In this document: positions 13,779-59,976 of the stretch, in pieces
Layout: the number at the start of each line of letters is the position of its first letter
How positions within the stretch are numbered: position 1 is the first letter of the stretch
Sequence record: PQ416618.1
DNA: 64,000 nt
Reading direction: 5' to 3' (one strand)
Source of the DNA: Escherichia phage vB_VIPECOMC06
Notes under the pieces: model-generated
The model's database searches: none
Told to the model about the DNA's origin: nothing
The model's input: only the letters and a program-made list of their open reading frames with translations
Made by a program: the position numbers and the translations under genes

Positions 13779-13803
13779 TGCTGTATAACCGTTAGTATAT
13801 AAT
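13779..13803 (+). promoter_or_regulatory. Candidate MotA-dependent middle promoter for uvsX (TGCTgtA box, 12-nt spacer, -10 TATAAT)
   Basis: MotA-box-like tgctgta at 13779-13785 and TATAAT at 13798-13803 upstream of uvsX; T4 uvsX is middle-transcribed. Confidence 0.3.
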
Positions 13804-13856
13804 CGTCTTATCTTTTAAACATGAGTAAAATATAATGATGCCTATGGAAAAATACA

Positions 13857-16820: not shown

Positions 16821-16838
16821 AGGAGACTTCGGTCTCCT
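16821..16838 (+). terminator. CUUCGG-tetraloop hairpin after gene 41 (aggagacTTCGgtctcct)
   Basis: 7-bp stem with UUCG loop 5 nt after the gp41 stop; short U tail; immediately followed by an early promoter. Confidence 0.55.
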
Positions 16839-16844
16839 TTCGGG

Positions 16845-16874
16845 GTTTACATCTTCCTCTAGGCATGATATGAT
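16845..16874 (+). promoter_or_regulatory. T4-type early promoter (-35 GTTTAC, extended -10 TGaTATGAT)
   Basis: GTTTAC 16845-16850, 18-nt spacer, TGn+TATGAT 16866-16874; precedes ORF 16904. Confidence 0.55.
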
Positions 16875-16903
16875 ATACTTACACTAACCAAGAGGAGAAC
16901 AAA

Positions 16904-17221
16904 ATGGAAACCATCGATTGTAAAGCAGAATTTAAGATTTTTTATCACGGTTCAAGCAGTTCAGCTAACATCGAAAACATGCTTTGTCCTCCTGAGGAAA
17001 CAGGAGTTCTGTCTGAAACTGGACGTAAGAAAAACTTGGATCGTGTATTCTTTACTGAAGATATCGGTTTAGCAAAGATTTATGCAGGACGAGCAGCACG
17101 CTCTTATGGAGGTGAACCACGTCTCTATCGAGTAATTTCTCCGGTAGACGTAGTTCAAATGAATAATACTAAAGGTGCTACAGTTTATCACGCTGAATGG
17201 GCATTTTGCGAGGAAATATGA
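16904..17221 (+). CDS. Hypothetical early protein (105 aa)
   Basis: ATG with RBS agaggag; preceded by an early promoter. Confidence 0.5.
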   Translation: METIDCKAEFKIFYHGSSSSANIENMLCPPEETGVLSETGRKKNLDRVFFTEDIGLAKIYAGRAARSYGGEPRLYRVISPVDVVQMNNTKGATVYHAEWAFCEEI

Positions 17222-17419: not shown

Positions 17420-17449
17420 GTTTACAAGCATCGCATACTGTGTTACTAT
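17420..17449 (+). promoter_or_regulatory. T4-type early promoter (-35 GTTTAC, extended -10 TGtTACTAT)
   Basis: GTTTAC 17420-17425, 18-nt spacer, TACTAT 17444-17449. Confidence 0.55.
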
Positions 17450-17477
17450 CTTTCTATCAACTACAGAGGAAATTGAA

Positions 17478-17846
17478 ATGAAAAAATTAATCGCTTTAGC
17501 AATGGTATTTGGATTAACCGGATGTGGTGCCCATGGCTTTATCCCTAATAACGTCGGCCAATTGATTTACAATCCGAATGTTAAACAGTATGACCAACCT
17601 AAAGTTGAAGTGGAAGACCCGGTTACTGTAGGTAATCGAATGATTCAAGCTGATGCCCATGCTCAACGTTATCGTGACTCTGATACTGTAGCATTGTCAA
17701 AAGAACAACGCGTTAAAGAACATTGTCTACAGGCTACTGAAATCGCATTCATTCGCTATGTTGAAACAACTGGTAAAGAGCCTACCCAGAAACAAATCGC
17801 AAATAACTACGTCCAGTGTATTGAACGTTTAAACAAATTTAACTAA
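17478..17846 (+). CDS. Putative lipoprotein (122 aa)
   Basis: Signal peptide MKKLIALAMVFGLTGC with lipobox LTGC. Confidence 0.5.
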   Translation: MKKLIALAMVFGLTGCGAHGFIPNNVGQLIYNPNVKQYDQPKVEVEDPVTVGNRMIQADAHAQRYRDSDTVALSKEQRVKEHCLQATEIAFIRYVETTGKEPTQKQIANNYVQCIERLNKFN

Positions 17847-17907
17847 TTGGTTTATACCAAAGTTAAAATAAGATATTATAAACATAACAAATCAAGAGGA
17901 AATTAAC

Positions 17908-18156
17908 ATGGAATTATTCGTAGCTAGTTCAGTAGCTGTTTTAATCGCAGGTATTGGTTCAATCATCATTTACATGTTGCCTTGGGTAATCGCACTTATT
18001 CGTGGCACAAAAAGCACAACAGCAATCTTTTTTGTATCTTTACTCTTTAACTGGACGATGATTGGTTGGATTGGAACTTTAATTTGGTCTATCGTTGCCG
18101 AAAAGAAATCTGCTCAGCAGCCTCAACAAGTAATTATTATTCGCGAAAAAGAATAA
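17908..18156 (+). CDS. Small inner-membrane protein (82 aa)
   Basis: Two predicted TM helices (VAVLIAGIGSIIIYMLPWVIALI; AIFFVSLLFNWTMIGWIGTLIWSIV); RBS agagga. Confidence 0.5.
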   Translation: MELFVASSVAVLIAGIGSIIIYMLPWVIALIRGTKSTTAIFFVSLLFNWTMIGWIGTLIWSIVAEKKSAQQPQQVIIIREKE

Positions 18157-18160
18157 ACTT

Positions 18161-18190
18161 GTTTACATTATAGATGGACTATAGTATAGT
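18161..18190 (+). promoter_or_regulatory. T4-type early promoter with palindrome straddling the -10 (ggacta / tagtcc)
   Basis: GTTTAC 18161-18166, 18-nt spacer, TATAGT 18185-18190; inverted repeat 18176-18181 / 18190-18195. Confidence 0.55.
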
Positions 18191-18219
18191 AGTCCTATCA
18201 AATCAACTAAGGAGTTAAA

Positions 18220-18513
18220 ATGAAAAAGTTATCATTGGCAGCAATCTTACTTGCAGTATCATGTGCACCGGCTCCAGTTACGGCAGGTTATGATAAAGAC
18301 CTCTGTGAGTGGTCAATGACTGCAAATCAAGAAGATGTTGAACAACAAATCTTCTCTGATATCATGAACATCACTAAACGAGACCGTCCTAATATGGTTA
18401 ATAAAGTTGTTGAACAACTTAAGTCTGGCGGTATCATGCAGTACAATTATGTTTTGTATTGTGACCCTAATTTCGATAACAAAGATATCGTAACCGAAAT
18501 CACAGGTGAATAA
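18220..18513 (+). CDS. sp: Spackle-like periplasmic protein (superinfection exclusion / lysozyme inhibitor), signal peptide
   Basis: 97 aa; signal peptide MKKLSLAAILLAVSCAP; size, position upstream of 61 and GYDKDLCEWSMTA resemble T4 Sp as I recall it. Confidence 0.5.
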   Translation: MKKLSLAAILLAVSCAPAPVTAGYDKDLCEWSMTANQEDVEQQIFSDIMNITKRDRPNMVNKVVEQLKSGGIMQYNYVLYCDPNFDNKDIVTEITGE

Positions 18514-22006: not shown

Positions 22007-22040
22007 AAGGAATCCTTCGGGATTCCTTTTTTTTTTTTTT
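22007..22040 (+). terminator. Rho-independent terminator after soc (UUCG-loop hairpin plus 14-T tract)
   Basis: aaggaatccTTCGggattcctt followed by a 14-T run. Confidence 0.85.
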
Positions 22041-22049
22041 GTTTCTACA

Positions 22050-22079
22050 GTTTACAACCACTAAAAACTGTGTTAAGAT
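22050..22079 (+). promoter_or_regulatory. T4-type early promoter (-35 GTTTAC, extended -10 TGtTAAGAT)
   Basis: GTTTAC 22050-22055, 18-nt spacer, TAAGAT 22074-22079. Confidence 0.5.
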
Positions 22080-22108
22080 AATTCTTACTTACTCAAGAGG
22101 AGAACAAT

Positions 22109-22336
22109 ATGTTAAATCGTTGGATTAAACCTAATAACACATTAGGTGCTTTGATTGCTCAAGAAGTTTCGTTGAAATACGGTCTTGGATATTACGATGA
22201 TGTAGTCGTACACTCATTCATGATGGATGGTGAAGACGTCAAATTTAATGCCGAAATCCGTTGGGATGATGGTGGTGTTCGTTTTGTTCGAGGAACAATT
22301 AATGCTTACGATGCTGAAGAAGTTGTTTGCTGTTAA
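22109..22336 (+). CDS. Hypothetical early protein (75 aa)
   Basis: ATG with RBS agaggag. Confidence 0.45.
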   Translation: MLNRWIKPNNTLGALIAQEVSLKYGLGYYDDVVVHSFMMDGEDVKFNAEIRWDDGGVRFVRGTINAYDAEEVVCC

Positions 22337-23531: not shown

Positions 23532-23560
23532 GTTTACATTCCCTCCTCTCGTGTTATGAT
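23532..23560 (+). promoter_or_regulatory. T4-type early promoter (-35 GTTTAC, extended -10 TGtTATGAT)
   Basis: GTTTAC 23532-23537, 17-nt spacer, TATGAT 23555-23560. Confidence 0.5.
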
Positions 23561-23662
23561 AGGCTTATCTTTAAATGGAGGTCTATCATGACATGTCAAT
23601 CTGAACTTCAAGAACGCGAATACCTAACAAAATCATTCATTTAAAAATATTGAATTTTTAGT

Positions 23663-23690
23663 GTACAATCTCTTCCGATGATGATACTAT
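23663..23690 (+). promoter_or_regulatory. Early promoter variant (-35 TGTACA, extended -10 TGaTACTAT)
   Basis: TGTACA 23663-23668, 16-nt spacer, TACTAT 23685-23690; precedes the ADP-ribosyltransferase gene. Confidence 0.45.
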
Positions 23691-23718
23691 ACCTTTATCA
23701 ACCATAGGAGAAACCTAA

Positions 23719-24327
23719 ATGTTTATGCCGTATAATGAATGTGAAATTGAAGAAATGGTTCGTCGTGCTCAATGCCCGGACTATCAGGATGAACTTCAGT
23801 ACAAAATAGATGAGCAATTCAGTGACATTGAACAAAGTGTACTGTGGCAATGTATGGAAAACAAGCCAGACAGCATCCAACAAGATTTAAGTGCAATTGT
23901 TCGTAGAAATTGGTCTTCTTCTGTTCCTGAGACAATGTATCGTGGAATCTCTAAGAAAACTATGGCCACACTCGATGATAAAGGCATTGGTAGTATTATT
24001 AAATTTGACAGAGTAATGAGCTTCAGCCCAGTGTTCAGTGTAGCACGTAACTTCGCTTCATATAATTTTTATGGAACATTTAATATGTTCTGCATCAAAG
24101 ATGCACCATTTGCTTTCAACTTCCGTGAACATATGCTTAACATGATTCTGGCTGCACCATCTTGCGAGTTCAATGGAGCTTTCCCTGAAGCTACAAGACG
24201 GTCTAATGCTAGACTTATATCTGACGAATGTGAATTTATGCTCCCTATAGGGACTACACTGCGTGTAGATTCTATTATTCAAGATGGACGTTATACAATC
24301 TGGAATCTGTCTATTGTAGGTTACTGA
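23719..24327 (+). CDS. ADP-ribosyltransferase, ModA/ModB-like (R-S-E class)
   Basis: 202 aa; catalytic triad elements in order: Arg (YRG), S-x-S (SFSPVFS), E-x-E (SDECEF); position matches T4 modA/modB. Confidence 0.55.
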   Translation: MFMPYNECEIEEMVRRAQCPDYQDELQYKIDEQFSDIEQSVLWQCMENKPDSIQQDLSAIVRRNWSSSVPETMYRGISKKTMATLDDKGIGSIIKFDRVMSFSPVFSVARNFASYNFYGTFNMFCIKDAPFAFNFREHMLNMILAAPSCEFNGAFPEATRRSNARLISDECEFMLPIGTTLRVDSIIQDGRYTIWNLSIVGY

Positions 24328-24402
24328 CTGGATTGGAATAACCAGATGGAACTCAGAACCATTATAACACATAAAAAATTAAAGCATTTTACGAAAAAAG
24401 AG

Positions 24403-24430
24403 TGTACACTACCTGAGGGCATGATATTAT
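24403..24430 (+). promoter_or_regulatory. Early promoter variant (-35 TGTACA, extended -10 TGaTATTAT)
   Basis: TGTACA 24403-24408, 16-nt spacer, TATTAT 24425-24430. Confidence 0.45.
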
Positions 24431-24479
24431 AAGCTTATCAGCTAAACGACCTAACGTCCGTAAGACAGAGGAAAATATT

Positions 24480-25226
24480 ATGTTATCAAATAATAAAATT
24501 AACAAAATCAATCGTCGTCTTGACCACACCAGAGCTTCTGCGAAGAGACGCTCTAAGGATTTTAACTTAGACTTTAATTACCTTAAAAACATTCTTGATC
24601 AAAAGGTCTGCGCTTACTCAGGTGAATCTTTCAATAACTCTGTTGAAGGTGAGAAATTATCCTTAGAACGTTTTAATAATGATATAGGCTACATTAAAGG
24701 TAATGTTATCCCAGTTAAGAAAAAATATAACACGGCTCGTTCTGATTTAACATTAGAAGAGCTTATTGAGAAACGTGATGCCATTGCAAGACGTATCGCT
24801 AATCCTTCTGCCCGTAAAGTAGAGAAACTTAACCTCGACGAGAAGAAATGGGCCCAAATTAAAAAGGTTTATGGTACTATTTTAAAAATCCGAGCAAAAC
24901 GTGAAAATCGTGTTAAGCATATGGCGAACATGATGAAAAATCAACCTTTATCTAACGAATCTAAACTTAGAATTGTTGCTTTGAAAGCACGCATTAATGG
25001 CTCACATCAAGCAGAAGGCCATGAACTTACTAAACTCAACGTTCTTCTTAAAGGCTCTGACTGGAAAACTAAAACTAAATTAACTGACGCTGAATCGCTT
25101 TTCGATACATATGATAAAGTTATCCAAGGTCTGCAACGTTTTGAAAAGATCGGTTTCATTGGTAAATTAAAATTGAAACGTGGCTTACCACTTAGCGCAT
25201 CATTATTCCAACTGATTAAAGGTTAA
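24480..25226 (+). CDS. Hypothetical basic protein (248 aa) in the T4 srd position
   Basis: Lys/Arg-rich; Srd-like assignment is by position and size only. Confidence 0.45.
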   Translation: MLSNNKINKINRRLDHTRASAKRRSKDFNLDFNYLKNILDQKVCAYSGESFNNSVEGEKLSLERFNNDIGYIKGNVIPVKKKYNTARSDLTLEELIEKRDAIARRIANPSARKVEKLNLDEKKWAQIKKVYGTILKIRAKRENRVKHMANMMKNQPLSNESKLRIVALKARINGSHQAEGHELTKLNVLLKGSDWKTKTKLTDAESLFDTYDKVIQGLQRFEKIGFIGKLKLKRGLPLSASLFQLIKG

Positions 25227-27542: not shown

Positions 27543-27572
27543 GTTTACAACCAAGGATGGTTGGAGTATAAT
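27543..27572 (+). promoter_or_regulatory. T4-type early promoter (-35 GTTTAC, -10 TATAAT)
   Basis: GTTTAC 27543-27548, 18-nt spacer, TATAAT 27567-27572. Confidence 0.55.
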
Positions 27573-27601
27573 GAATTCAATTAAACAAAGAGAGAGAAAT
27601 T

Positions 27602-28057
27602 ATGATTACTATTGGTGAAATTAAGTATGTATCGCCTGTATCTCGTTCTAAAGCTGCAGGACGATTGGTTGAAGTGGTGGGACTTCGCACAAATGGCATG
27701 GGACGCATTAAAGAAGTTAAAGTTCGAATCATTCATAACTCCGGGCAAAAAGATGTTCAGTTCGCTTATGTAAGTCCTAAATTCTTGGAAACTCCTGCGA
27801 GCGCTCATTCTGCTTCTACCGAACCTAATGTACAGTTCAAATGGGCCCTTTGCAAAGGCGTTGAATTTATAACCGATAAAGAATTTGATTACATCGACGA
27901 ATACGGTTATCCAAGCAAAACTGATACTATGTGTGGCTTCATTAGTGACCAATGGGTTGAAGATGGTGAAAAGCTATACAATATCGTATTCTTAGGTGAC
28001 TTCCGAGTTGTTAAAGAATCTGAAATCACTCGCTATGTGTCTCCTCGTAAAGCTTAA
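27602..28057 (+). CDS. Hypothetical protein, paralog 1 of a tandem pair (151 aa)
   Basis: Shares motifs with the next ORF (KAAGRLVEV / KVAGKLVEV; KLYNIVF; WVEDG). Confidence 0.5.
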   Translation: MITIGEIKYVSPVSRSKAAGRLVEVVGLRTNGMGRIKEVKVRIIHNSGQKDVQFAYVSPKFLETPASAHSASTEPNVQFKWALCKGVEFITDKEFDYIDEYGYPSKTDTMCGFISDQWVEDGEKLYNIVFLGDFRVVKESEITRYVSPRKA

Positions 28058-28490: not shown

Positions 28491-28519
28491 GTTTACTTCT
28501 CCTCCGGTTTTGATATTAT
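28491..28519 (+). promoter_or_regulatory. T4-type early promoter (-35 GTTTAC, extended -10 TGaTATTAT)
   Basis: GTTTAC 28491-28496, 17-nt spacer, TATTAT 28514-28519. Confidence 0.55.
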
Positions 28520-28545
28520 AACCATATCAACCAGAGGAGAATAAT

Positions 28546-29070
28546 ATGTTAGTTTACCGCGTAGAACGTAGTTTTTGTACTCAACGTGAATCATTACCAG
28601 GAATTGCTATCGAAGATGGTAAAGCCGTCAGAATTTGGGAAACCTCTTGGAATAAAGAACCTCGCTCGCCATACGGTTGGTCGGGCACCGACAACTCTGA
28701 AGAAACATGGGAGTTCCTTGATAAGCATGGAATAATCTCAGGTAACTTCTACCATCACGGCGACAACTATAATGTCCCTAATCGTCCTACAGTAAATGAA
28801 GACAAACTCCTTGAACAAAATATCTTAAGATACCATAGAATTGAGCACACATTTGAATTGAGTGAAGATTGGGCTCAAGGGTTCTATTTTGGATTTGAAA
28901 GTGTTGACGCGGTTTATGCATGGTTTGATGACCAGATGGATGTTGAACTCTTGAAAGCTAAAGGATACTACATCGCGATCTATGAAGCACCTGATTTCAT
29001 CCTCGGAAGTTGTCAATTAATGTTTAGACGTTCATTGGCAGAACAAGTTGATTTTATTTTGCTAAAATGA
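28546..29070 (+). CDS. Hypothetical protein (174 aa)
   Basis: RBS agaggag; early promoter upstream. Confidence 0.5.
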   Translation: MLVYRVERSFCTQRESLPGIAIEDGKAVRIWETSWNKEPRSPYGWSGTDNSEETWEFLDKHGIISGNFYHHGDNYNVPNRPTVNEDKLLEQNILRYHRIEHTFELSEDWAQGFYFGFESVDAVYAWFDDQMDVELLKAKGYYIAIYEAPDFILGSCQLMFRRSLAEQVDFILLK

Positions 29071-29099
29071 TGTACAACAACTACGGTCTATGATACTAT
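29071..29099 (+). promoter_or_regulatory. Early promoter variant (-35 TGTACA, extended -10 TGaTACTAT) with palindrome ggtcta / tagacc around the -10
   Basis: TGTACA 29071-29076; TACTAT 29094-29099; inverted repeat 29085-29090 / 29099-29104. Confidence 0.5.
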
Positions 29100-29127
29100 A
29101 GACCTATCAAAACAAGAGGAGAATATT

Positions 29128-29355
29128 ATGAAACGTCAAATCATTAAAAACGTGACTACTGATTCAAACATCGATGAGTTTGAAGATGTTCTGTTTAATC
29201 CTGATTTAGTTGTTGTACAGAAAAACTGGACCGAATTTTTATGCTACACTGAAGTGGTTTACGTTTATGAAAAACTCGGTGATGAAATGCCTATCTATGG
29301 TATCTTCCGTGAAATCACTGAAAACGGTACAACTTATTGGAAGGAAACTTACTAA
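29128..29355 (+). CDS. Hypothetical protein (75 aa)
   Basis: RBS agaggag upstream. Confidence 0.45.
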
Positions 29356-37696: not shown

Positions 37697-37726
37697 GTTT
37701 ACAACTAAGTAGGACTATGATATAGT
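37697..37726 (+). promoter_or_regulatory. T4-type early promoter with palindrome aggacta / tagtcct straddling the -10
   Basis: GTTTAC 37697-37702, 18-nt spacer, TGaTATAGT 37718-37726; inverted repeat 37711-37717 / 37726-37732. Confidence 0.55.
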
Positions 37727-37752
37727 AGTCCTATCTAAAAGAGGATAACATC

Positions 37753-38016
37753 ATGAAATTTAAATTTTTCTACGCAAAACATAAAGTAACAGGCGAATTT
37801 GTTTCAATGTACAACACTGCAGATGACGAAGGGATGATTTATACCCATTTGGGACTATCTCATTGGGACTCGGACGTGCCTTATATGTCATCTGAAGCCG
37901 AAATAACTCGTCTGGTTAATGGACATATGAACGACCATTTTGGTGTTATTCTTTCTAAAGACCTTAAAGAGGTTATCAACAAAGGATATATGGAACTCGC
38001 GGAAGTTGAGATATGA
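37753..38016 (+). CDS. Hypothetical protein (87 aa)
   Basis: RBS agaggat; early promoter upstream. Confidence 0.45.
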   Translation: MKFKFFYAKHKVTGEFVSMYNTADDEGMIYTHLGLSHWDSDVPYMSSEAEITRLVNGHMNDHFGVILSKDLKEVINKGYMELAEVEI

Positions 38017-38205: not shown

Positions 38206-38235
38206 GTTTACAACAAGGTAGGATTATGGTATAGT
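38206..38235 (+). promoter_or_regulatory. T4-type early promoter with imperfect palindrome aggatta / tagtcct around the -10
   Basis: GTTTAC 38206-38211, 18-nt spacer, TGgTATAGT 38227-38235. Confidence 0.55.
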
Positions 38236-38263
38236 AGTCCTACTGGAACATGAGGAACACAAA

Positions 38264-38464
38264 ATGGCTAAGCTTTTTAAAGATGTTGAAATTGGTGAAA
38301 AATTTGTTCTGAATAATGGTCAGCAGCTTATTCGTGTAGCTTCTATCGCCGGACAAACTCATAACTGTATCGCCCCAACGTGTTGGACTCGATTCTTTAT
38401 TGAAGATGACACTGAATGTTTAACTGTTGAAGAGCTTTTTGAACGTTCTGATATAGCCGAATAA
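38264..38464 (+). CDS. Hypothetical protein (66 aa)
   Basis: RBS gaggaac; early promoter upstream. Confidence 0.4.
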   Translation: MAKLFKDVEIGEKFVLNNGQQLIRVASIAGQTHNCIAPTCWTRFFIEDDTECLTVEELFERSDIAE

Positions 38465-40773: not shown

Positions 40774-40802
40774 GTTTACATGTGCTTCAAACATGATATT
40801 AT
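40774..40802 (+). promoter_or_regulatory. T4-type early promoter (-35 GTTTAC, extended -10 TGaTATTAT) for motA
   Basis: GTTTAC 40774-40779, 17-nt spacer, TATTAT 40797-40802. Confidence 0.55.
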
Positions 40803-40841
40803 AGACCTATCAAAACAAAACAACCAAATTGGAGAAATAAA

Positions 40842-41474
40842 ATGTCTAAAGTTACTTACATCATCAAAGCTTCTGAAAACGCTCTGAATGAAAAAACTGC
40901 TGCAATAATGGTTTATATCATTAAGAACAACTTCACCACTGCTGCCAATGTCCGTGAAGCTCTGGAAGCGGAATACAATGCATCAGTTGTTAACTCTAAC
41001 ATTGGTGTATTGATTAAGAAAGGTTTAGTCGAAAAATCCGGTGATGGACTTATAGCAACAGGCGAAGCAATGGATATTATCCAAAAAGCTGCAGACCTCT
41101 TTGCCCAAGAAAATGCTCCAGAACTTCTTCAGAAACGTAACACTAGAAAAGCACGTGGAGTTACTCCTGAAATGCATGAATTAGCAAACTTTGTTTTTGA
41201 AAATATTAAAGATAAAGTTGAAGTTAAAGAAATTGGTGAAAACCGTAGTAACTTGGAAGTTCGATTTGCAAAACGAGTTCTAGGTATTCGTCAGATCGAA
41301 ATTCGTCGAGATGGTTGTCTTAGAATATTTGCATACAACATGTCAGAAACTGAATCAAAACTGTTTACTTCTCTTGAAAATGATGTTAAAATTAAGATCG
41401 GTGGTAAATATACTTACATTGACTTCCCTAATGTATCCAAAGAAATCATTACCCTTGTAACTAACGTACTGTGA
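40842..41474 (+). CDS. motA: MotA middle-transcription activator
   Basis: 210 aa; MSKVTYIIKASENALNEKTAAI...NSNIGVLIKKGLVEKSGDGLI matches T4 MotA as I recall it. Confidence 0.85.
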   Translation: MSKVTYIIKASENALNEKTAAIMVYIIKNNFTTAANVREALEAEYNASVVNSNIGVLIKKGLVEKSGDGLIATGEAMDIIQKAADLFAQENAPELLQKRNTRKARGVTPEMHELANFVFENIKDKVEVKEIGENRSNLEVRFAKRVLGIRQIEIRRDGCLRIFAYNMSETESKLFTSLENDVKIKIGGKYTYIDFPNVSKEIITLVTNVL

Positions 41475-43153: not shown

Positions 43154-43304
43154 TCTTCAGAACGTAGTAGAGGCCGAACGTGAGCGTGAGGCTTTAGTCT
43201 ATAATGAACTATTAGCTCAGTTCTTAGCCTTACACTCGTATGAACAGGAAGACTATACCAATTACGTTAAAAGCGTAGAAAAAGCCGTTTACAATCAACA
43301 CTGA
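43143..43304 (+). CDS. Hypothetical protein (53 aa)
   Basis: Internal ATG of track ORF 43089..43304, overlapping the upstream stop region. Confidence 0.3.
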   Translation: MSHNLQNVVEAEREREALVYNELLAQFLALHSYEQEDYTNYVKSVEKAVYNQH

Positions 43305-43350
43305 TAATGGTACTATATCCATATCAACTAAGTGGAATGAATAAAACGTT

Positions 43351-43623
43351 ATGAATAAAGACATTGAAATCGTACGTGAAATTATTACTATTGCTTCTAT
43401 TTTGATTAAATTCTCTAGGGAAGATATTGTTGAAGACCGAGCAAGTTTCATCGGATTCTTGAATGAGATTGGAATTAAAAAAGATGGTCGGCAGCTAAAT
43501 CAGAATTCGTTCAGAAAACTAATTACAAATTTAACTGCCGAAGAAAAGAAAACACTGATTAGTGAATTCAACGAAGGTTTTGAAAATATTTATCGTCATT
43601 TAGCGATGTATTCTAACAACTAA
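43351..43623 (+). CDS. asiA: Anti-sigma-70 factor AsiA
   Basis: 90 aa; MNKDIEIVREIITIASILIKFSREDIVE... closely matches T4 AsiA as I recall it. Confidence 0.85.
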   Translation: MNKDIEIVREIITIASILIKFSREDIVEDRASFIGFLNEIGIKKDGRQLNQNSFRKLITNLTAEEKKTLISEFNEGFENIYRHLAMYSNN

Positions 43624-53792: not shown

Positions 53793-53800
53793 TATTTATA
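53793..53800 (-). promoter_or_regulatory. T4 late promoter TATAAATA (- strand) for gene 34
   Basis: Plus-strand tatttata, about 31 nt upstream of the gene 34 ATG. Confidence 0.7.
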
Positions 53801-53803
53801 CCA

Positions 53804-53833
53804 GTTTACGCTTTCAAATGAGTATGTTACTAT
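53804..53833 (+). promoter_or_regulatory. T4-type early promoter for rnh (-35 GTTTAC, extended -10 TGtTACTAT)
   Basis: GTTTAC 53804-53809, 18-nt spacer, TACTAT 53828-53833; divergent from the gene 34 late promoter. Confidence 0.55.
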
Positions 53834-53865
53834 AGACAAGTTGACTAACTGAACAAGAGGTTCAT

Positions 53866-54783
53866 ATGGATTTAGAAATGATGTTGGATGAAGATTACAA
53901 AGAAGGTATTGCACTTGCCGACTTTAGTAACATTGCATTGGCAGCTGCATTAAACAACTTTGAAGACGGCGATAAAATTACTGTTCCGATGGTTCGCCAT
54001 GTAATCTTGAATTCAATTCGTAAAAACGTAGTGATGTTCCGTAAGCAAGGCTATACAAAATTTGTATTGTGTATGGATAATGCTACTTCAGGTTATTGGC
54101 GTCGTGACTTTGCTTACTATTACAAGAAAAATCGTAAAACCGATCGTGAAGCTTCAAAGTGGGATTGGGAAGGATATTTTACTGCACTCCGTCAAGTTGT
54201 TGATGAGATTAAGAAATACATGCCATACGTTGTAATGGATATTGACAAGTATGAAGCGGATGACCATATCGGTGTATTAACTAAATATTTGTCATTAGCT
54301 GGACATAAGGTATGTATTGTTGCATCAGATGGTGACTTTACACAATTACACAAATATCCTAACGTTAAACAGTGGTCGCCACCACAGAAAAAATGGGTTA
54401 AAATTAAGAACGGTTCTGCTGAAATTGATTGCATGACTAAAATTCTTAAAGGTGACCGTAAAGACGGCGTTGCATCTGTTCGAGTTCGTGGCGACTTCTG
54501 GTTTACCAGAGTTGATGGTGAACGAACTCCGAGCATGAAAACAACGATTATTGAAGCAATTGCCAATGACCGTTCTCAAGCTGAAGTATTATTAAGTGCG
54601 GAAGAATATAAACGGTATCAAGAAAATTTGGTTCTCATTGATTTTGATTATATCCCTGATAATATTGCTTCAACCATTATAGAGTATTATAACTCATATA
54701 AACCACAACCTAAAGGCAAGATTTATTCATACTTTGTAAAATCTGGTCTTTCTAAATTAACAAGTGTAATTAATGAATTCTGA
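53866..54783 (+). CDS. rnh: RNase H (5'-3' exonuclease, FEN family)
   Basis: 305 aa; T4 RNase H length and position; acidic catalytic clusters (MDIDKYEADD, ASDGDF). Confidence 0.85.
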   Translation: MDLEMMLDEDYKEGIALADFSNIALAAALNNFEDGDKITVPMVRHVILNSIRKNVVMFRKQGYTKFVLCMDNATSGYWRRDFAYYYKKNRKTDREASKWDWEGYFTALRQVVDEIKKYMPYVVMDIDKYEADDHIGVLTKYLSLAGHKVCIVASDGDFTQLHKYPNVKQWSPPQKKWVKIKNGSAEIDCMTKILKGDRKDGVASVRVRGDFWFTRVDGERTPSMKTTIIEAIANDRSQAEVLLSAEEYKRYQENLVLIDFDYIPDNIASTIIEYYNSYKPQPKGKIYSYFVKSGLSKLTSVINEF

Positions 54784-57725: not shown

Positions 57726-57747
57726 GGGAGACTTCGGTCTCCCTTTT
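57726..57747 (+). terminator. Rho-independent terminator after gene 32 (gggagacTTCGgtctccc plus TTTT)
   Basis: 7-bp stem with UUCG loop, 6 nt after the stop, followed by ttttg. Confidence 0.75.
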
Positions 57748-57774: not shown

Positions 57775-57803
57775 GTTTACTTTTCCTTTAAACATGATAC
57801 TAT
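57775..57803 (+). promoter_or_regulatory. T4-type early promoter (-35 GTTTAC, extended -10 TGaTACTAT)
   Basis: GTTTAC 57775-57780, 17-nt spacer, TACTAT 57798-57803. Confidence 0.55.
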
Positions 57804-57832
57804 AGACTTATCAACAACATGAGGAAATCAAA

Positions 57833-58219
57833 ATGGAAATCGGAAAATCTTATATCATTAACCCTTTATTTAAAGACGACTTTGCTAACGAGTGCCGTTG
57901 CAATGCAATGATGCTAAATTTAATAGAGAAGCACGGACCTAGTTTTGTTGTAGATGAAATGGAAAGTGATGATTGTGCTGGTGACTGTGTGGTACGTGTA
58001 ACTATGGAAGACGGCACTGAATACATGGCCGGTGGCCCACTTGAGACGTATTTTGAGATTTACTCTGAAGAATTCAAATACTTTACTGAGGTAACTTTAG
58101 AAAAGCCTCAACCTACTAACGAAGGTATAACTTTAGGTGTAACAAAAATCCATTGTATCGTAGATGAAACCAACGTCGACGAAATCATCAAACTTTTGCA
58201 AAAAACTTTTAAAAAGTAG
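57833..58219 (+). CDS. Hypothetical protein (128 aa)
   Basis: RBS gaggaaat; early promoter upstream. Confidence 0.45.
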   Translation: MEIGKSYIINPLFKDDFANECRCNAMMLNLIEKHGPSFVVDEMESDDCAGDCVVRVTMEDGTEYMAGGPLETYFEIYSEEFKYFTEVTLEKPQPTNEGITLGVTKIHCIVDETNVDEIIKLLQKTFKK

Positions 58220-58248
58220 TTTACAACAAGATAGGGCTATGTTATAGT
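58219..58248 (+). promoter_or_regulatory. T4-type early promoter with covarying palindrome agggcta / tagccct around the -10
   Basis: GTTTAC 58219-58224, 18-nt spacer, TGtTATAGT 58240-58248; inverted repeat 58232-58238 / 58248-58254. Confidence 0.55.
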
Positions 58249-58280
58249 AGCCCTATCAAATAAAAGTGAAGGAGAATAAA

Positions 58281-59976
<1,696 letters not shown>

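Follow-up and report, generated by a model that had tools for sequence, protein, structure and literature searches.

The locus at positions 57775–57832 of the 64,000-nucleotide stretch analysed here (the window), from Escherichia phage vB_VIPECOMC06, belongs to a set of closely similar intergenic sites and raises two questions: what kind of promoter the set represents and why a block of bases just 3' of the -10 box recurs within it. The window derives from an RB69/JS09-like Mosigvirus (DNA identity to Mosigvirus genomes 95–97.5%); its gene order is that of the T4 early region, the + strand is the strand of the early genes, and an Rfam scan of the whole window returned no matches. The family is already known: its members are the strong early promoters that are standard in a T4-like phage of RB69 type. 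Early promoters of T4 were reportedly first described by Liebig & Rueger and Wilkens & Rueger. We hold with high confidence that the sites are T4-type early promoters of this Mosigvirus, with the account of initiation, block and cassettes given below; their early timing and the position of +1 are predictions from orthology and T4 data.

The motif described in the earlier note is present, on the + strand, at all 16 of the sites listed there. Two further sites, one at 43287 (asiA) and a weaker one at 17850 (imm), bring the total to 18 (Table 1), and the start codon of an early gene follows every one of them after a leader of 20–43 nt. The -35 hexamer is exactly GTTTAC in 14 of 17 sites; the remaining three (GTGTAC twice and ATGTAC once) had been taken to represent a second hexamer, TGTACA, but this TGTACA/GTACAA trio is better aligned as GTTTAC with one or two mismatches. 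The hexamer-to-hexamer distance is 18 bp in 12 of 17 sites and 17 bp in five, as had been proposed. The -10 box is TAnnnT in all 17 and is extended by TGn in 15, so that the extended form holds except at 18161 (TAG) and 27543 (GAG). A UP-like tract lies 4–8 nt 5' of the -35 hexamer, with A in 9–14 of the 17 sites per position and G at none of the five positions. The combination of A-rich tract, GTTTAC, 17–18 bp, TGn and TAnnnT matches the T4-type early promoter pattern, as does the location of the sites, which are oriented 5' of early genes with a Shine-Dalgarno (SD) sequence and start codon close by. Downstream genes include orthologues of the T4 early genes imm, sp, mrh.2, modA, srd, motB, cef, ndd.1, motA, asiA, rnh, frd.1 and frd.2. 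The promoter at 53804 stands back-to-back with a late promoter of gene 34 on the - strand.

A search pattern that leaves the block out (GTTTAC with at most one mismatch, a spacer of 16–18 and TGnTAnnnT) gave 15 matches on the + strand and three on the - strand, compared with 1.95 expected per strand and a maximum of five in 100 simulations. Fourteen of the + strand matches have the block and directly precede a gene; the sole intragenic one, at 41363 inside motA, is without the block. A scan with a generic sigma-70 consensus (55 matches versus 48 ± 6 expected) fails to pick out the early-promoter sites and was dropped as a detector; the T4-specific pattern is needed.

Table 1. Early-promoter cassettes (-35 to start codon), hairpins within them and neighbouring terminators in the window.
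Position	Strand	Feature	Sequence elements	Predicted +1	RB69 early promoter or fold statistics
16845–16906	+	Cassette of RB69ORF040c-like gene	GTTTAC, 18 bp, TGA TATGAT	16881	Pe:20971
17420–17480	+	imm.1 cassette	TGT TACTAT CTTTCTATC	17456	Pe:19761
17850–17910	+	Weaker imm promoter	GTTTAT, 18 bp, TATTAT, without TGn		Pe:19331
18161–18222	+	sp (spackle) cassette	TATAGT AGTCCTATC	18197	Pe:19020
22050–22111	+	mrh.2 cassette	Degenerate block AATTCTTAC		Pe:14950
23532–23590	+	modB cassette; modB here cut to 18 codons			Pe:13466
23661–23721	+	modA cassette	-35 GTGTAC		Pe:12829
24402–24482	+	srd cassette	-35 GTGTAC; long leader, 43 nt		Pe:12088
27543–27604	+	Cassette of motB-like gene	Without TGn, without block; small hairpin AACCA/TGGTT in spacer		Pe:8947, 46/76; next Pe:51019, 44/76
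28491–28548	+	motB.2 cassette	TGA TATTAT AACCATATC		Pe:7443
29070–29130	+	cef cassette	-35 ATGTAC; TACTAT AGACCTATC		Pe:6863
37697–37755	+	Cassette of RB69ORF270c-like gene	TATAGT AGTCCTATC		Pe:165795
38206–38266	+	ndd.1 cassette	TATAGT AGTCCTACT		Pe:165283
40774–40844	+	motA cassette	TATTAT AGACCTATC		Pe:162713
43287–43353	+	asiA cassette	TGG TACTAT ATCCATATC		Pe:160217
53804–53868	+	rnh cassette	Block only AGAC		Pe:149309, 48/76
57775–57835	+	frd.2 cassette	-35 57775–57780; TGA 57795–57797; -10 TACTAT 57798–57803; block AGACTTATCAA 57804–57814; SD GAGGA 57821–57825; ATG 57833	57810	Pe:146013
58219–58283	+	frd.1 cassette	TATAGT AGCCCTATC; +1 predicted at 58255		Pe:145300
18173–18199	+	Hairpin across -10 box	Spacer arm/block arm		-11.5 kcal/mol, z -1.8
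29085–29104	+	Hairpin across -10 box	GGTCTAT/ATAGACC		z -1.9
37709–37734	+	Hairpin across -10 box	TAGGACTA/TAGTCCTA		Covariation
38217–38244	+	Hairpin across -10 box	GGTAGGATTA/TAGTCCTACT, U.G pair		z -2.9, covariation
58230–58257	+	Hairpin across -10 box	GATAGGGCTA/TAGCCCTATC		-18.7 kcal/mol, z -4.6, covariation
28497–28541	+	Long hairpin, 5' arm upstream of +1	Spacer TTCTCCTCCGGTT with AACCAGAGGAGAA (motB.2 SD)		-19.2 kcal/mol, z -5.9
23555–23590	+	Hairpin with modB start region	-10 box and discriminator with modB SD and AUG		z -2.4
16822–16841	+	Intrinsic terminator after gene 41, directly 5' of promoter 16845	GGAGAC-TTCG-GTCTCC + TTTC		
22007–22041	+	Intrinsic terminator after soc, 5' of promoter 22050	AAGGAATCC-TTCG-GGATTCCTT + T run		
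57726–57747	+	Intrinsic terminator after gene 32, 5' of promoter 57775	GGGAGAC-TTCG-GTCTCCC + TTTT		

All 18 sites have as their best match an entry in the RB69 early-promoter list (Nolan et al. 2006, PMC1524935, Additional file 3), 16 of them with scores of 59–76 of 76, the weakest being those at 53804 and 27543. Together with the early-gene orthologues downstream, these matches support the earlier reading of the sites as early promoters, and specifically as ones of T4 type. Because the RB69 counterparts were predicted in 2006, the finding is real but ordinary; the earlier note had not recognised the family as one described before. The phage differs from RB69 in having lost ORF041c, most of modB and ORF245c beside such promoters. 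Its similarity to the T4 early promoters (Pe; Hinton 2010, PMC2988021) extends to the UP-like A tract, GTTTAC, TGn, TAnnnT, the 17–18 bp spacing and the same early genes, to a start, predicted here, at A 7 nt after the -10 box, and to CTATCAAC after the -10 box, which is found in 13 of 33 T4 promoters. In contrast, the dominant cassette is AG(A/T)CCTATCAAAA here and ACAACTATCAACTAC in T4, and the -10 box is here often TATAGT, TACTAT or TATTAT.

The block had been described as AGAC(C/T)TATC. The literal string occurs only three times (29100, 40803 and 57804), and at least three copies were reached in nine of 100 shuffles, so the exact string is not above chance and was rejected as the conserved unit. 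What stands is a looser form, A(-6) G(-5) n C(-3) Y(-2) T(-1) A(+1) T(+2) C(+3) A A, in which A(-6), T(-1) and A(+1) are each conserved at 15 of 17 sites and C(-3), T(+2) and C(+3) each at 13. TATC occupies positions -1 to +3 at 12 of the 17 sites (11 of the 16 listed earlier), and TAnnnTnnnCnTATC occurs 12 times versus 2.9 expected, a count reached in none of 100 shuffles. TATC is missing at five of the 17 sites, and most of the block is missing at 27543 and 53804; it is therefore not essential.

The earlier suggestion of a discriminator or +1 signal fits by position, since a -10 box at -12 to -7 places +1 at the A of TATC. In 52 experimentally mapped T4 middle promoters the -10 box is at -12 to -7 and +1 is a purine in 43, the Pe133295 of the T4 record is the A 7 nt after TATTAT, and A occupies the predicted +1, 7 nt after the -10 box, at 15 of the 17 sites. 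Literature searches yielded nothing usable on RNA-seq start-site mapping for T4. With the start so placed, the block would comprise a discriminator, A(-6) G(-5) n C(-3) Y(-2), a start element of Y-R-Y type, T(-1) A(+1) T(+2), and the bases transcribed first, C(+3) A A. Y-R-Y is the bacterial "start" promoter element centred on the start site (Kuo et al. 2025, PMC12641261), and T(-1) A(+1) T(+2) lies at the distance from the -10 box expected for it. Unlike the bacterial element, the phage block is longer on both sides (C-3, Y-2; C+3 A A) and far more stereotyped than in host promoters. "Additional regions of consensus" have been noted in T4 early promoters (Hinton 2010, PMC2988021) and a preference for C at -3 to -1 in those of RB69 (Nolan et al. 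2006, PMC1524935). The block also holds in an independent set, the 55 published RB69 promoters, where T(-1) recurs 44 times, C(-3) and T(+2) 42 times each, A(+1) 40 times and C(+3) 36 times. The published 51-nt RB69 model ends at A (+1), so that T(+2) C(+3) A A falls just outside it; "TC" immediately follows the last position of the model in 32 of the 55 promoters (p = 4e-26). TATC is present in 13 of 33 early promoters of T4, where the consensus is ACAACTATCAAC, and about 20 of 25 early promoters of RB49, which has a different -35 hexamer, contain TATAAT-ACACCCAT.

C(-3), T(+2) and C(+3) are rare in the mapped T4 middle promoters (9, 14 and 11 of 52, respectively) and weak at predicted RB69 middle promoters, and for these three positions a reading of the block as the generic start context of any promoter in these phages was rejected. 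The absence of the block from the 52 T4 middle promoters indicates that part of it is early-specific; generic RNA polymerase preferences account only for Y(-1) R(+1). Such a distribution would also be expected if C(-3)...T(+2) C(+3) A A were a recognition signal for a phage factor or a modified polymerase, acting in the early-promoter shut-off that sets in after a few minutes or in Alt-dependent stimulation, and according to reviews AsiA or ModA do not explain the shut-off (PMC2988021; PMC3014915). However, no candidate protein is known, the site is neither palindromic nor dimeric, several sites that are typical in all other respects have a variant block or none, and a mutational scan of T4 P8.1 is reported in PMC2988021 to have traced the Alt effect to no single position. 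We consider a recognition signal very unlikely. That the early-specific C(-3) and T(+2) C(+3) A A serve, through a phage function, as a signal for selective switch-off (or for stimulation by Alt-modified polymerase) is highly improbable. The idea that the block is a site for a phage-encoded modifier of RNA polymerase, put forward in the earlier note, is without direct support in this analysis.

The most likely role of the block is in initiation itself. Judged from the family, host sigma-70 RNA polymerase would bind the UP-like tract, GTTTAC, TGn and TAnnnT directly after infection and would start transcription at the A 7 nt after the -10 box. The early promoters would have to out-compete host promoters without any activator, and the block probably fixes the start site and optimises both the formation of the open complex and the escape of the polymerase from the promoter. 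Since T4 middle promoters seldom have C(-3), T(+2) or C(+3), and predicted RB69 middle promoters show them only weakly, although the core enzyme is shared, a role of these positions in optimised initiation is one that we infer. The resulting transcripts would have a short A/C-rich, G-poor leader (AUCAA...), mostly of 20–23 nt, followed by a GAGGA Shine-Dalgarno sequence and the start codon. It is also conceivable that the conserved bases act in the RNA, with a pppAUCAA 5' end and an unstructured A/C-rich leader influencing mRNA stability, ribosome loading or the choice of 5' cap. The leaders are indeed uniform (20–23 nt at 12 of 17 sites), positions -3 to +9 are nearly free of G, and the accessibility of the SD sequence is high in promoter-initiated RNA (mean unpaired probability 0.61–0.67), but the strongest conservation lies upstream of +1, at the untranscribed C(-3) and T(-1), and no 5'-end-specific factor for T4 early mRNAs appears in the few reviews searched for other questions. 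An action at the RNA level is thus judged unlikely, and initiation remains the preferred reading.

Among the direct repeats of the window, the early promoters make up the three largest families (D1, D2 and D5). Whole promoter-to-ATG cassettes appear to spread and recombine within the genome, a PeSL-type behaviour that would reinforce their stereotypy. Relative to phage ST0, 423 bp (ORF041c) have been deleted, with the crossover in the SD/leader of a pair of neighbouring cassettes, and recombination between such cassettes has been shown experimentally in RB49/phi1 (PMC2839356). The modB deletion was rejected as a cassette-mediated event; its junctions lie outside the promoter homology. If whole cassettes are duplicated or exchanged, the bases beside the -10 box hitch-hike, and the block could be kept mainly by descent and by homogenisation through cassette duplication and exchange (concerted evolution of the PeSL type) rather than by selection for polymerase contacts. 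Both the ORF041c junction and the RB49/phi1 experiments point in this direction, as do the likeness within each of the sub-families, which extends through spacer and leader, and the genome-specific nature of the dominant cassette (TGGTACTATACAACTATCAACTAC in T4, TGTTATAGTAGTCCTATCAAAACA in RB69 and ATAATACACCCATACCGAAACGA in RB49). On the other hand, A-6, C-3, Y-2, A+1 and T+2 are kept across sub-families with unrelated spacers and leaders, these positions are also kept in three genera, including RB49 with its different -35 hexamer, and C(-3), with 1.3 bits, is nearly as informative as T(-7), with 1.46 bits. Homogenisation as the main cause is accordingly a possibility that we take seriously but doubt, and selection on initiation is favoured. 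Just 5' of three of the promoters (16845, 22050 and 57775) lies a terminator hairpin.

About a third of the promoters contain a hairpin, a feature absent from the earlier note; there are two types. In the first, which is supported by covariation, an arm in the spacer pairs with an arm in the block across the -10 box; in the second, promoter sequence pairs with the gene's own ribosome-binding site. A stem-loop of PeSL type spans the -10 box at five promoters (18161, 29070, 37697, 38206 and 58219). Covariation was examined in 27 distinct promoters picked by the 3' arm only: 92.6% of cells are paired, compensatory changes occur in five of 10 pairs, and there are 21 double-change cells versus 6.4 ± 2.8 in shuffles (21 being reached in none of 500), slid controls being 20–64% paired. 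The TAG-type site at 18161 lies outside the search pattern that gave these 27 sequences and has no site-specific covariation. In the window, RB69 and T4 alike, a spacer pairs better with the sequence downstream of it than with the equivalent from another promoter (p < 1e-4), and internal stem mismatches comprise 17 G.T versus 3 A.C. The stem-loop is a selected structure and not a chance repeat. A complementarity between TGATA of the extended -10 and TATCA of the block, seen in folds, was treated as incidental because the block is unchanged with TGA, TGT or TGG.

Both hairpin types are similar to those of the PeSL cassettes of RB49/phi1, PST/T4 and nt-1/KVP40 (Arbiol 2010, PMC2839356; Comeau 2014, PMC4122927). 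Shared features are a compact intergenic AT-rich tract with a strong promoter, stem-loop, SD sequence and ATG, a stem-loop located between -35 and -10 or over the -10 box, G-T pairs in the stems and, to judge from the ORF041c deletion, perhaps recombination between cassettes that gives indels. In contrast to the PeSLs, the stems here are A/T-richer, and the embedded hairpins are followed by AUCAAA... and not by a U tract; a terminator role is therefore only putative here. Terminator function has been measured only for one RB49 stem-loop (PMC2839356). PMC2839356 and PMC4122927 describe no PeSLs in the RB69 group and make no mention of spacer pairing with the gene's own SD.

The hairpins would fold only in read-through RNA from upstream, and RNA begun at the promoter itself would be unable to form them. 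At 23532 and 28491 the 5' arm precedes the internal start and the SD/AUG is covered by the 3' arm; the unpaired probability from SD to AUG is 0.02 in read-through RNA versus 0.44 in own RNA at 23532, and 0.26 versus 0.64 at 28491. A hairpin of the modB type is found at the T4 modB promoter as well. At five of 17 sites in the window and at 14 of 67 T4 and RB69 sites (p = 0.006), the native upstream region of the promoter ranks in the most-occluding decile. Occlusion of the SD by the own upstream region as a property of all promoters was rejected, mean SD accessibility in read-through RNA not differing from that in swapped controls (p = 0.15–0.55); the enrichment is only in the low tail, i.e. 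in a subset of promoters. The hairpins of modB (23532) and motB.2 (28491) resemble those that hide the ribosome-binding site of T4 e, soc, 49 and I-TevI and contain an internal promoter (PMC3014915), in that only the read-through RNA folds. In the T4 genes the internal promoter is late (or middle) and translation is late-only, whereas here the promoter is early and the effect on translation is putative. The sites at 23532 and 28491 are therefore not members of the T4 set, although the logic may be similar.

Because it re-discovers a known class, the T4-type early promoters, in a phage close to RB69, the family adds annotation and not new biology, and it provides 18 promoters, predicted start sites and transcription units for genome annotation. 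The extension of the conserved region a few bases past the published RB69 model, and its specificity for early versus middle promoters, may merit specialist attention, as may the hairpins across the -10 box, which compensatory changes maintain in RB69- and T4-type phages as well as in RB49. In read-through RNA some early promoters, among them the modB promoter of both T4 and this phage, can base-pair with the ribosome-binding site of their own gene; if this pairing acts, translation would depend on the promoter that made the RNA. Should the reading of the block as a switch-off signal be true, it would open a way into the shut-off of T4 early transcription, which has long lacked an explanation.

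More than 100 complete phage genomes, including PaulHMueller, SHSML-52-1, ST0, NHEP10 and RB69 itself, match two large pieces of the window at 95–97.5% identity (megablast), and ST0, the annotated relative, has been placed in Mosigvirus. The + strand has the gene order of the T4 early region (gp41, dmd, imm, sp, 61, soc, mrh, modA and srd, continuing with dda, dexA, motB, cef, 39, rIIA, rIIB, ndd, 52, motA and asiA); rnh, 59, 32, frd and td come after the opposite-strand tail-fibre genes. All 16 promoters listed in the earlier note, each designated here by the + strand coordinate at which its −35 hexamer starts, hold the motif described, and two further sites are present at 43287, upstream of asiA, and, weaker, at 17850, upstream of imm. 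The proposed spacer of 17–18 bp is borne out (18 bp at 12 sites and 17 bp at five). The three sites assigned a TGTACA or GTACAA −35 element are real, but they represent GTTTAC with one or two mismatches in the same register. The extended −10 element is complete in most cases, TGn being present in 15 of 17 sites and TAnnnT in all 17. To avoid circularity, the window was scanned with a pattern that ignores all bases 3′ of the −10 box: GTTTAC with at most one mismatch, a spacer of 16–18, and TGnTAnnnT. This block-blind scan gave 15 matches on the + strand and three on the − strand of the whole window, as compared with 1.95 expected per strand and a maximum of five in 100 first-order Markov simulations. 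Fourteen of the + strand matches are just upstream of a gene; the other, GTTTAC-18-TGTTAAAAT inside motA, has neither downstream block nor Shine-Dalgarno (SD) sequence and is probably a chance match. A generic TTGACA/TATAAT scan of the window showed no enrichment at all. No direct-repeat families in the 64 kb are larger than the three that the early promoters form.

Coordinates of promoter elements, hairpins and associated features in the window
Feature	Position	Strand	Sequence
−35, promoter 57775	57775–57780	+	
TGn, promoter 57775	57795–57797	+	TGA
−10, promoter 57775	57798–57803	+	TACTAT
Predicted +1, promoter 57775	57810	+	
GAGGA, promoter 57775	57821–57825	+	GAGGA
Start codon, promoter 57775	57833	+	ATG
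Variant −35	23661		GTGTAC
Variant −35	24402		GTGTAC
Variant −35	29070		ATGTAC
−10-straddling hairpin	18173–18199		
−10-straddling hairpin	29085–29104		
−10-straddling hairpin	37709–37734		
−10-straddling hairpin	38217–38244		
−10-straddling hairpin	58230–58257		
SD/AUG pairing, promoter 28491	28497–28541		
SD/AUG pairing, promoter 23532	23555–23590		
Gene 41 terminator	16822–16837		
soc terminator	22007–22028		
Gene 32 terminator hairpin	57726–57743		
Match inside motA	41363–41398	+	
Likely uvsX middle promoter	13780–13812		
rnh early promoter −35	53804–53809		
Late-promoter motif	53800–53793	−	TATAAATA
ORF041c deletion junction	16894–16901		
Hybrid cassette	16845–16906		
modB remnant	23588–23644		
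modB deletion junction	near 23627–23631		

For each of the 18 window sites, the best match is an entry in the RB69 early-promoter list, with 59–76 of 76 positions identical for 16 sites and the weakest matches at 53804 (48/76) and 27543 (46/76; second-best 44). The genes downstream are orthologues of T4 early genes. The promoter family is therefore already known, and the window sites are largely published as RB69 predictions. Site 57775, the counterpart of RB69 Pe:146013 (Pe, early promoter), is separated by 31 nt from the preceding gene 32 terminator hairpin, the T run of which extends to 57747. The homologue of RB69ORF245c, which in RB69 follows the gene 32 terminator and a promoter, is missing from window positions 57775–58219, and promoter 57775 directly drives frd.2, the product of which is only 78% identical to the RB69 protein. 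At rnh, the early promoter −35 is 3 bp from a − strand late-promoter motif facing gene 34, so that positions 53793–53809 hold an early and a late promoter back to back in divergent orientation; the RB69 counterpart of the rnh promoter is listed both as early and as middle.

The position of the transcription start was estimated from the mapped T4 middle promoters (Table 1 of the Hinton 2010 review, PMC2988021), in which the T, A and T of the −10 box lie at −12, −11 and −7 in 45–47 of the 52 extracted and +1 is a purine in 43. The coordinate of Pe133295, an early promoter named in the T4 RefSeq record, is an A 7 nt after TATTAT. The A of TATC is therefore the expected +1 of the window early promoters, and T-A-T conforms to a Y-R-Y triplet, the "start element" described recently in bacterial promoters (PMC12641261). 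The reading of these sites as early promoters with a discriminator or +1 signal was right in substance.

The conserved block 3′ of the −10 box, proposed as AGAC(C/T)TATC, occurs in that literal form in only three copies and is not significant alone, but a looser version is. In 17 sites aligned on the −10 box, the successive positions are A (15/17), G (9/17), n, C (13/17), Y (14/17), T (15/17), A (15/17), T (13/17) and C (13/17), followed by an A/C-rich stretch that is nearly free of G; TAnnnTnnnCnTATC occurs 12 times versus 2.9 expected. With the −10 box at −12 to −7, the block spans −6 to +3, with its A at +1. An independent test used 55 of the 58 predicted RB69 early promoters with coordinates reported by Nolan et al. 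(2006; PMC1524935), those within the RB69 stretches extracted. Because the 51-nt model of that study ends exactly at the A, later bases played no part in finding the sites, and yet TC follows in 32/55 (p = 4e-26 versus composition). The RB69 set has C(−3) in 42/55, T(−1) in 44/55, T(+2) in 42/55 and C(+3) in 36/55, and G is absent at −3, −2 and −1 (0/55). A preference for C at −3 to −1 was previously remarked for RB69, RB49 and 44RR early promoters (PMC1524935), and T4 early promoters are described as having "additional regions of consensus" (PMC2988021). In T4, where TGGTACTATACAACTATCAACTAC is a dominant cassette, 13 of 33 early promoters found with the same block-blind pattern have TATC at −1 to +3; in RB49, in which the −35 is TTGACA, about 20 of 25 published sites extracted have TATAAT-ACACCCAT-(A/C). 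A(−6), C(−3), Y(−2), A(+1) and T(+2) are thus common to three genera with unrelated spacers and leaders, which argues for function over simple inheritance.

Among the 52 mapped T4 middle promoters, C(−3) is present in nine, T(+2) in 14 and C(+3) in 11. The predicted RB69 middle promoters are G-free at −3 and −2, with a pyrimidine at −3 in 28/29, a preference that fades by −1, and A/T at +1; as a set they show no TC after the start. Y(−1) R(+1) thus reflects a general preference of the polymerase, whereas C(−3) and T(+2) C(+3) A A distinguish early promoters. The early-specific bases may tune initiation or escape at activator-independent promoters; the lambda PL and T7 A1 transcripts likewise begin AUC. 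Alternatively, they could be a signal for the shut-off of early promoters, which is still unexplained in reviews (PMC2988021; PMC3014915). The site for a phage-encoded modifier of RNA polymerase suggested in the earlier note is hypothetical. The sole non-early match to the block pattern is a likely uvsX middle promoter (a TGCTG MotA-box-like motif, 13 bp and TATAAT), which has CGTCTTATC after the −10 box.

The cassette from −35 to start codon is only ~58–62 bp at most sites, with leaders of 20–23 nt in 12 of 17. Sub-families such as 18161/37697/38206/58219 and 40774/57775 share spacer and leader as well, and the favourite cassette differs from genome to genome. The RB69ORF041c homologue, present in both ST0 and RB69, has been lost here through a deletion whose junction falls within the SD/leader that two neighbouring cassettes have in common; the resulting hybrid combines the promoter of the first with the SD-ATG of the second. 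Similar recombination is described for the promoter-early stem-loop (PeSL) cassettes of RB49/phi1 and PST/T4 (PMC2839356; PMC4122927), so part of the stereotypy reflects concerted evolution. A separate deletion of ~503 bp relative to ST0/RB69, with a junction outside promoter homology, has cut modB to an 18-codon remnant; its early promoter, 23532, is intact and now lies 129 bp upstream of the modA promoter.

At promoters 18161, 29070, 37697, 38206 and 58219, the block and the part of the spacer immediately 5′ of TGn are reverse complements, giving a stem of 8–11 bp around the −10 box (−18.7 kcal/mol, z = −4.6 at 58219). Spacers complement their own downstream sequences better than those of other promoters (−8.8 versus −6.5 kcal/mol in the window, −9.5 versus −6.8 in RB69 and −11.2 versus −6.9 in T4; permutation p < 1e-4 in each), and this is also true for spacer and block alone. 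Covariation was assessed in 27 distinct TATAGT-type promoter sequences from IMG/VR, T4, RB69 and the window, selected on the 3′ arm only. Of the cells, 92.6% are paired, falling to 20–64% when the partner is slid; five of ten stem pairs have compensatory changes, with 21 double-change cells as compared with 6.4 ± 2.8 in shuffles (0/500). In the series GATAGG/CCTATC, GGTAGG/CCTATC, GGTAGG/CCTACC, a change at the block T(+2) is matched by one in the spacer. Compensatory changes maintain the hairpins flanking the −10 box in phages of the T4 and RB69 types and their relatives, with tolerance of G.U but not of A.C pairs.

Internal mismatches in 35 stems comprise 17 G.T and three A.C, under scoring blind to mismatch type, which points to pairing in sense-strand RNA. 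Because the 5′ arm is upstream of +1, the hairpin can form only in read-through RNA from the upstream gene. Promoters 18161, 29070, 37697 and 58219 overlap the stop codon of the preceding gene or begin no more than ~12 nt from it, 38206 being the exception with a gap of ~190 nt; 16845, 22050 and 57775, which have a classical terminator upstream, lack a −10-straddling hairpin. The description of PeSLs as "stem-loops between −35 and −10 or overlapping the −10 box" (PMC2839356) fits the window hairpins. Since no U tract follows the −10-straddling stems, a terminator role is only putative. Read on the − strand (29104–29085), the cef-promoter hairpin has a T-rich tail and was flagged as terminator-like; embedded hairpins might stop antisense transcription as well. 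The gene 41 and gene 32 terminators have the same stem and UUCG loop (GGAGAC-TTCG-GTCTCC), the soc terminator also has a TTCG loop, and each of the three is just 5′ of an early promoter.

In some promoters, a pyrimidine-rich spacer or −10 region is complementary to the gene's own SD/AUG. TTCTCCTCCGGTT and AACCAGAGGAGAA form such a duplex at 28491 (motB.2; −19.2 kcal/mol, z = −5.9), and at 23532 the modB SD-AUG is complementary to the −10 box plus discriminator (z = −2.4), an arrangement also visible at the T4 modB promoter. Pairing is weaker at 23661, 24402 and 57775, and T4 and RB69 contain examples of 12–16 bp. Mean SD accessibility over all promoters is not lower than with swapped upstream regions. 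The native upstream region is in the most occluding tenth for 14 of 67 T4 and RB69 promoters (p = 0.006) and for five of 17 window sites, including 57775. As the upstream arms precede +1, read-through RNA at modB and motB.2 would translate poorly, unlike promoter-initiated RNA, in which the SD/AUG would be open. The layout is like that of the known T4 hairpins at e, soc, 49 and I-TevI (PMC3014915), but with an early promoter inside the hairpin; we regard such occlusion as a lead, not a result. Only two points go slightly beyond the literature covered: the covariation of the −10-flanking hairpins, and the bases at −3, +2 and +3 that are specific to early promoters.
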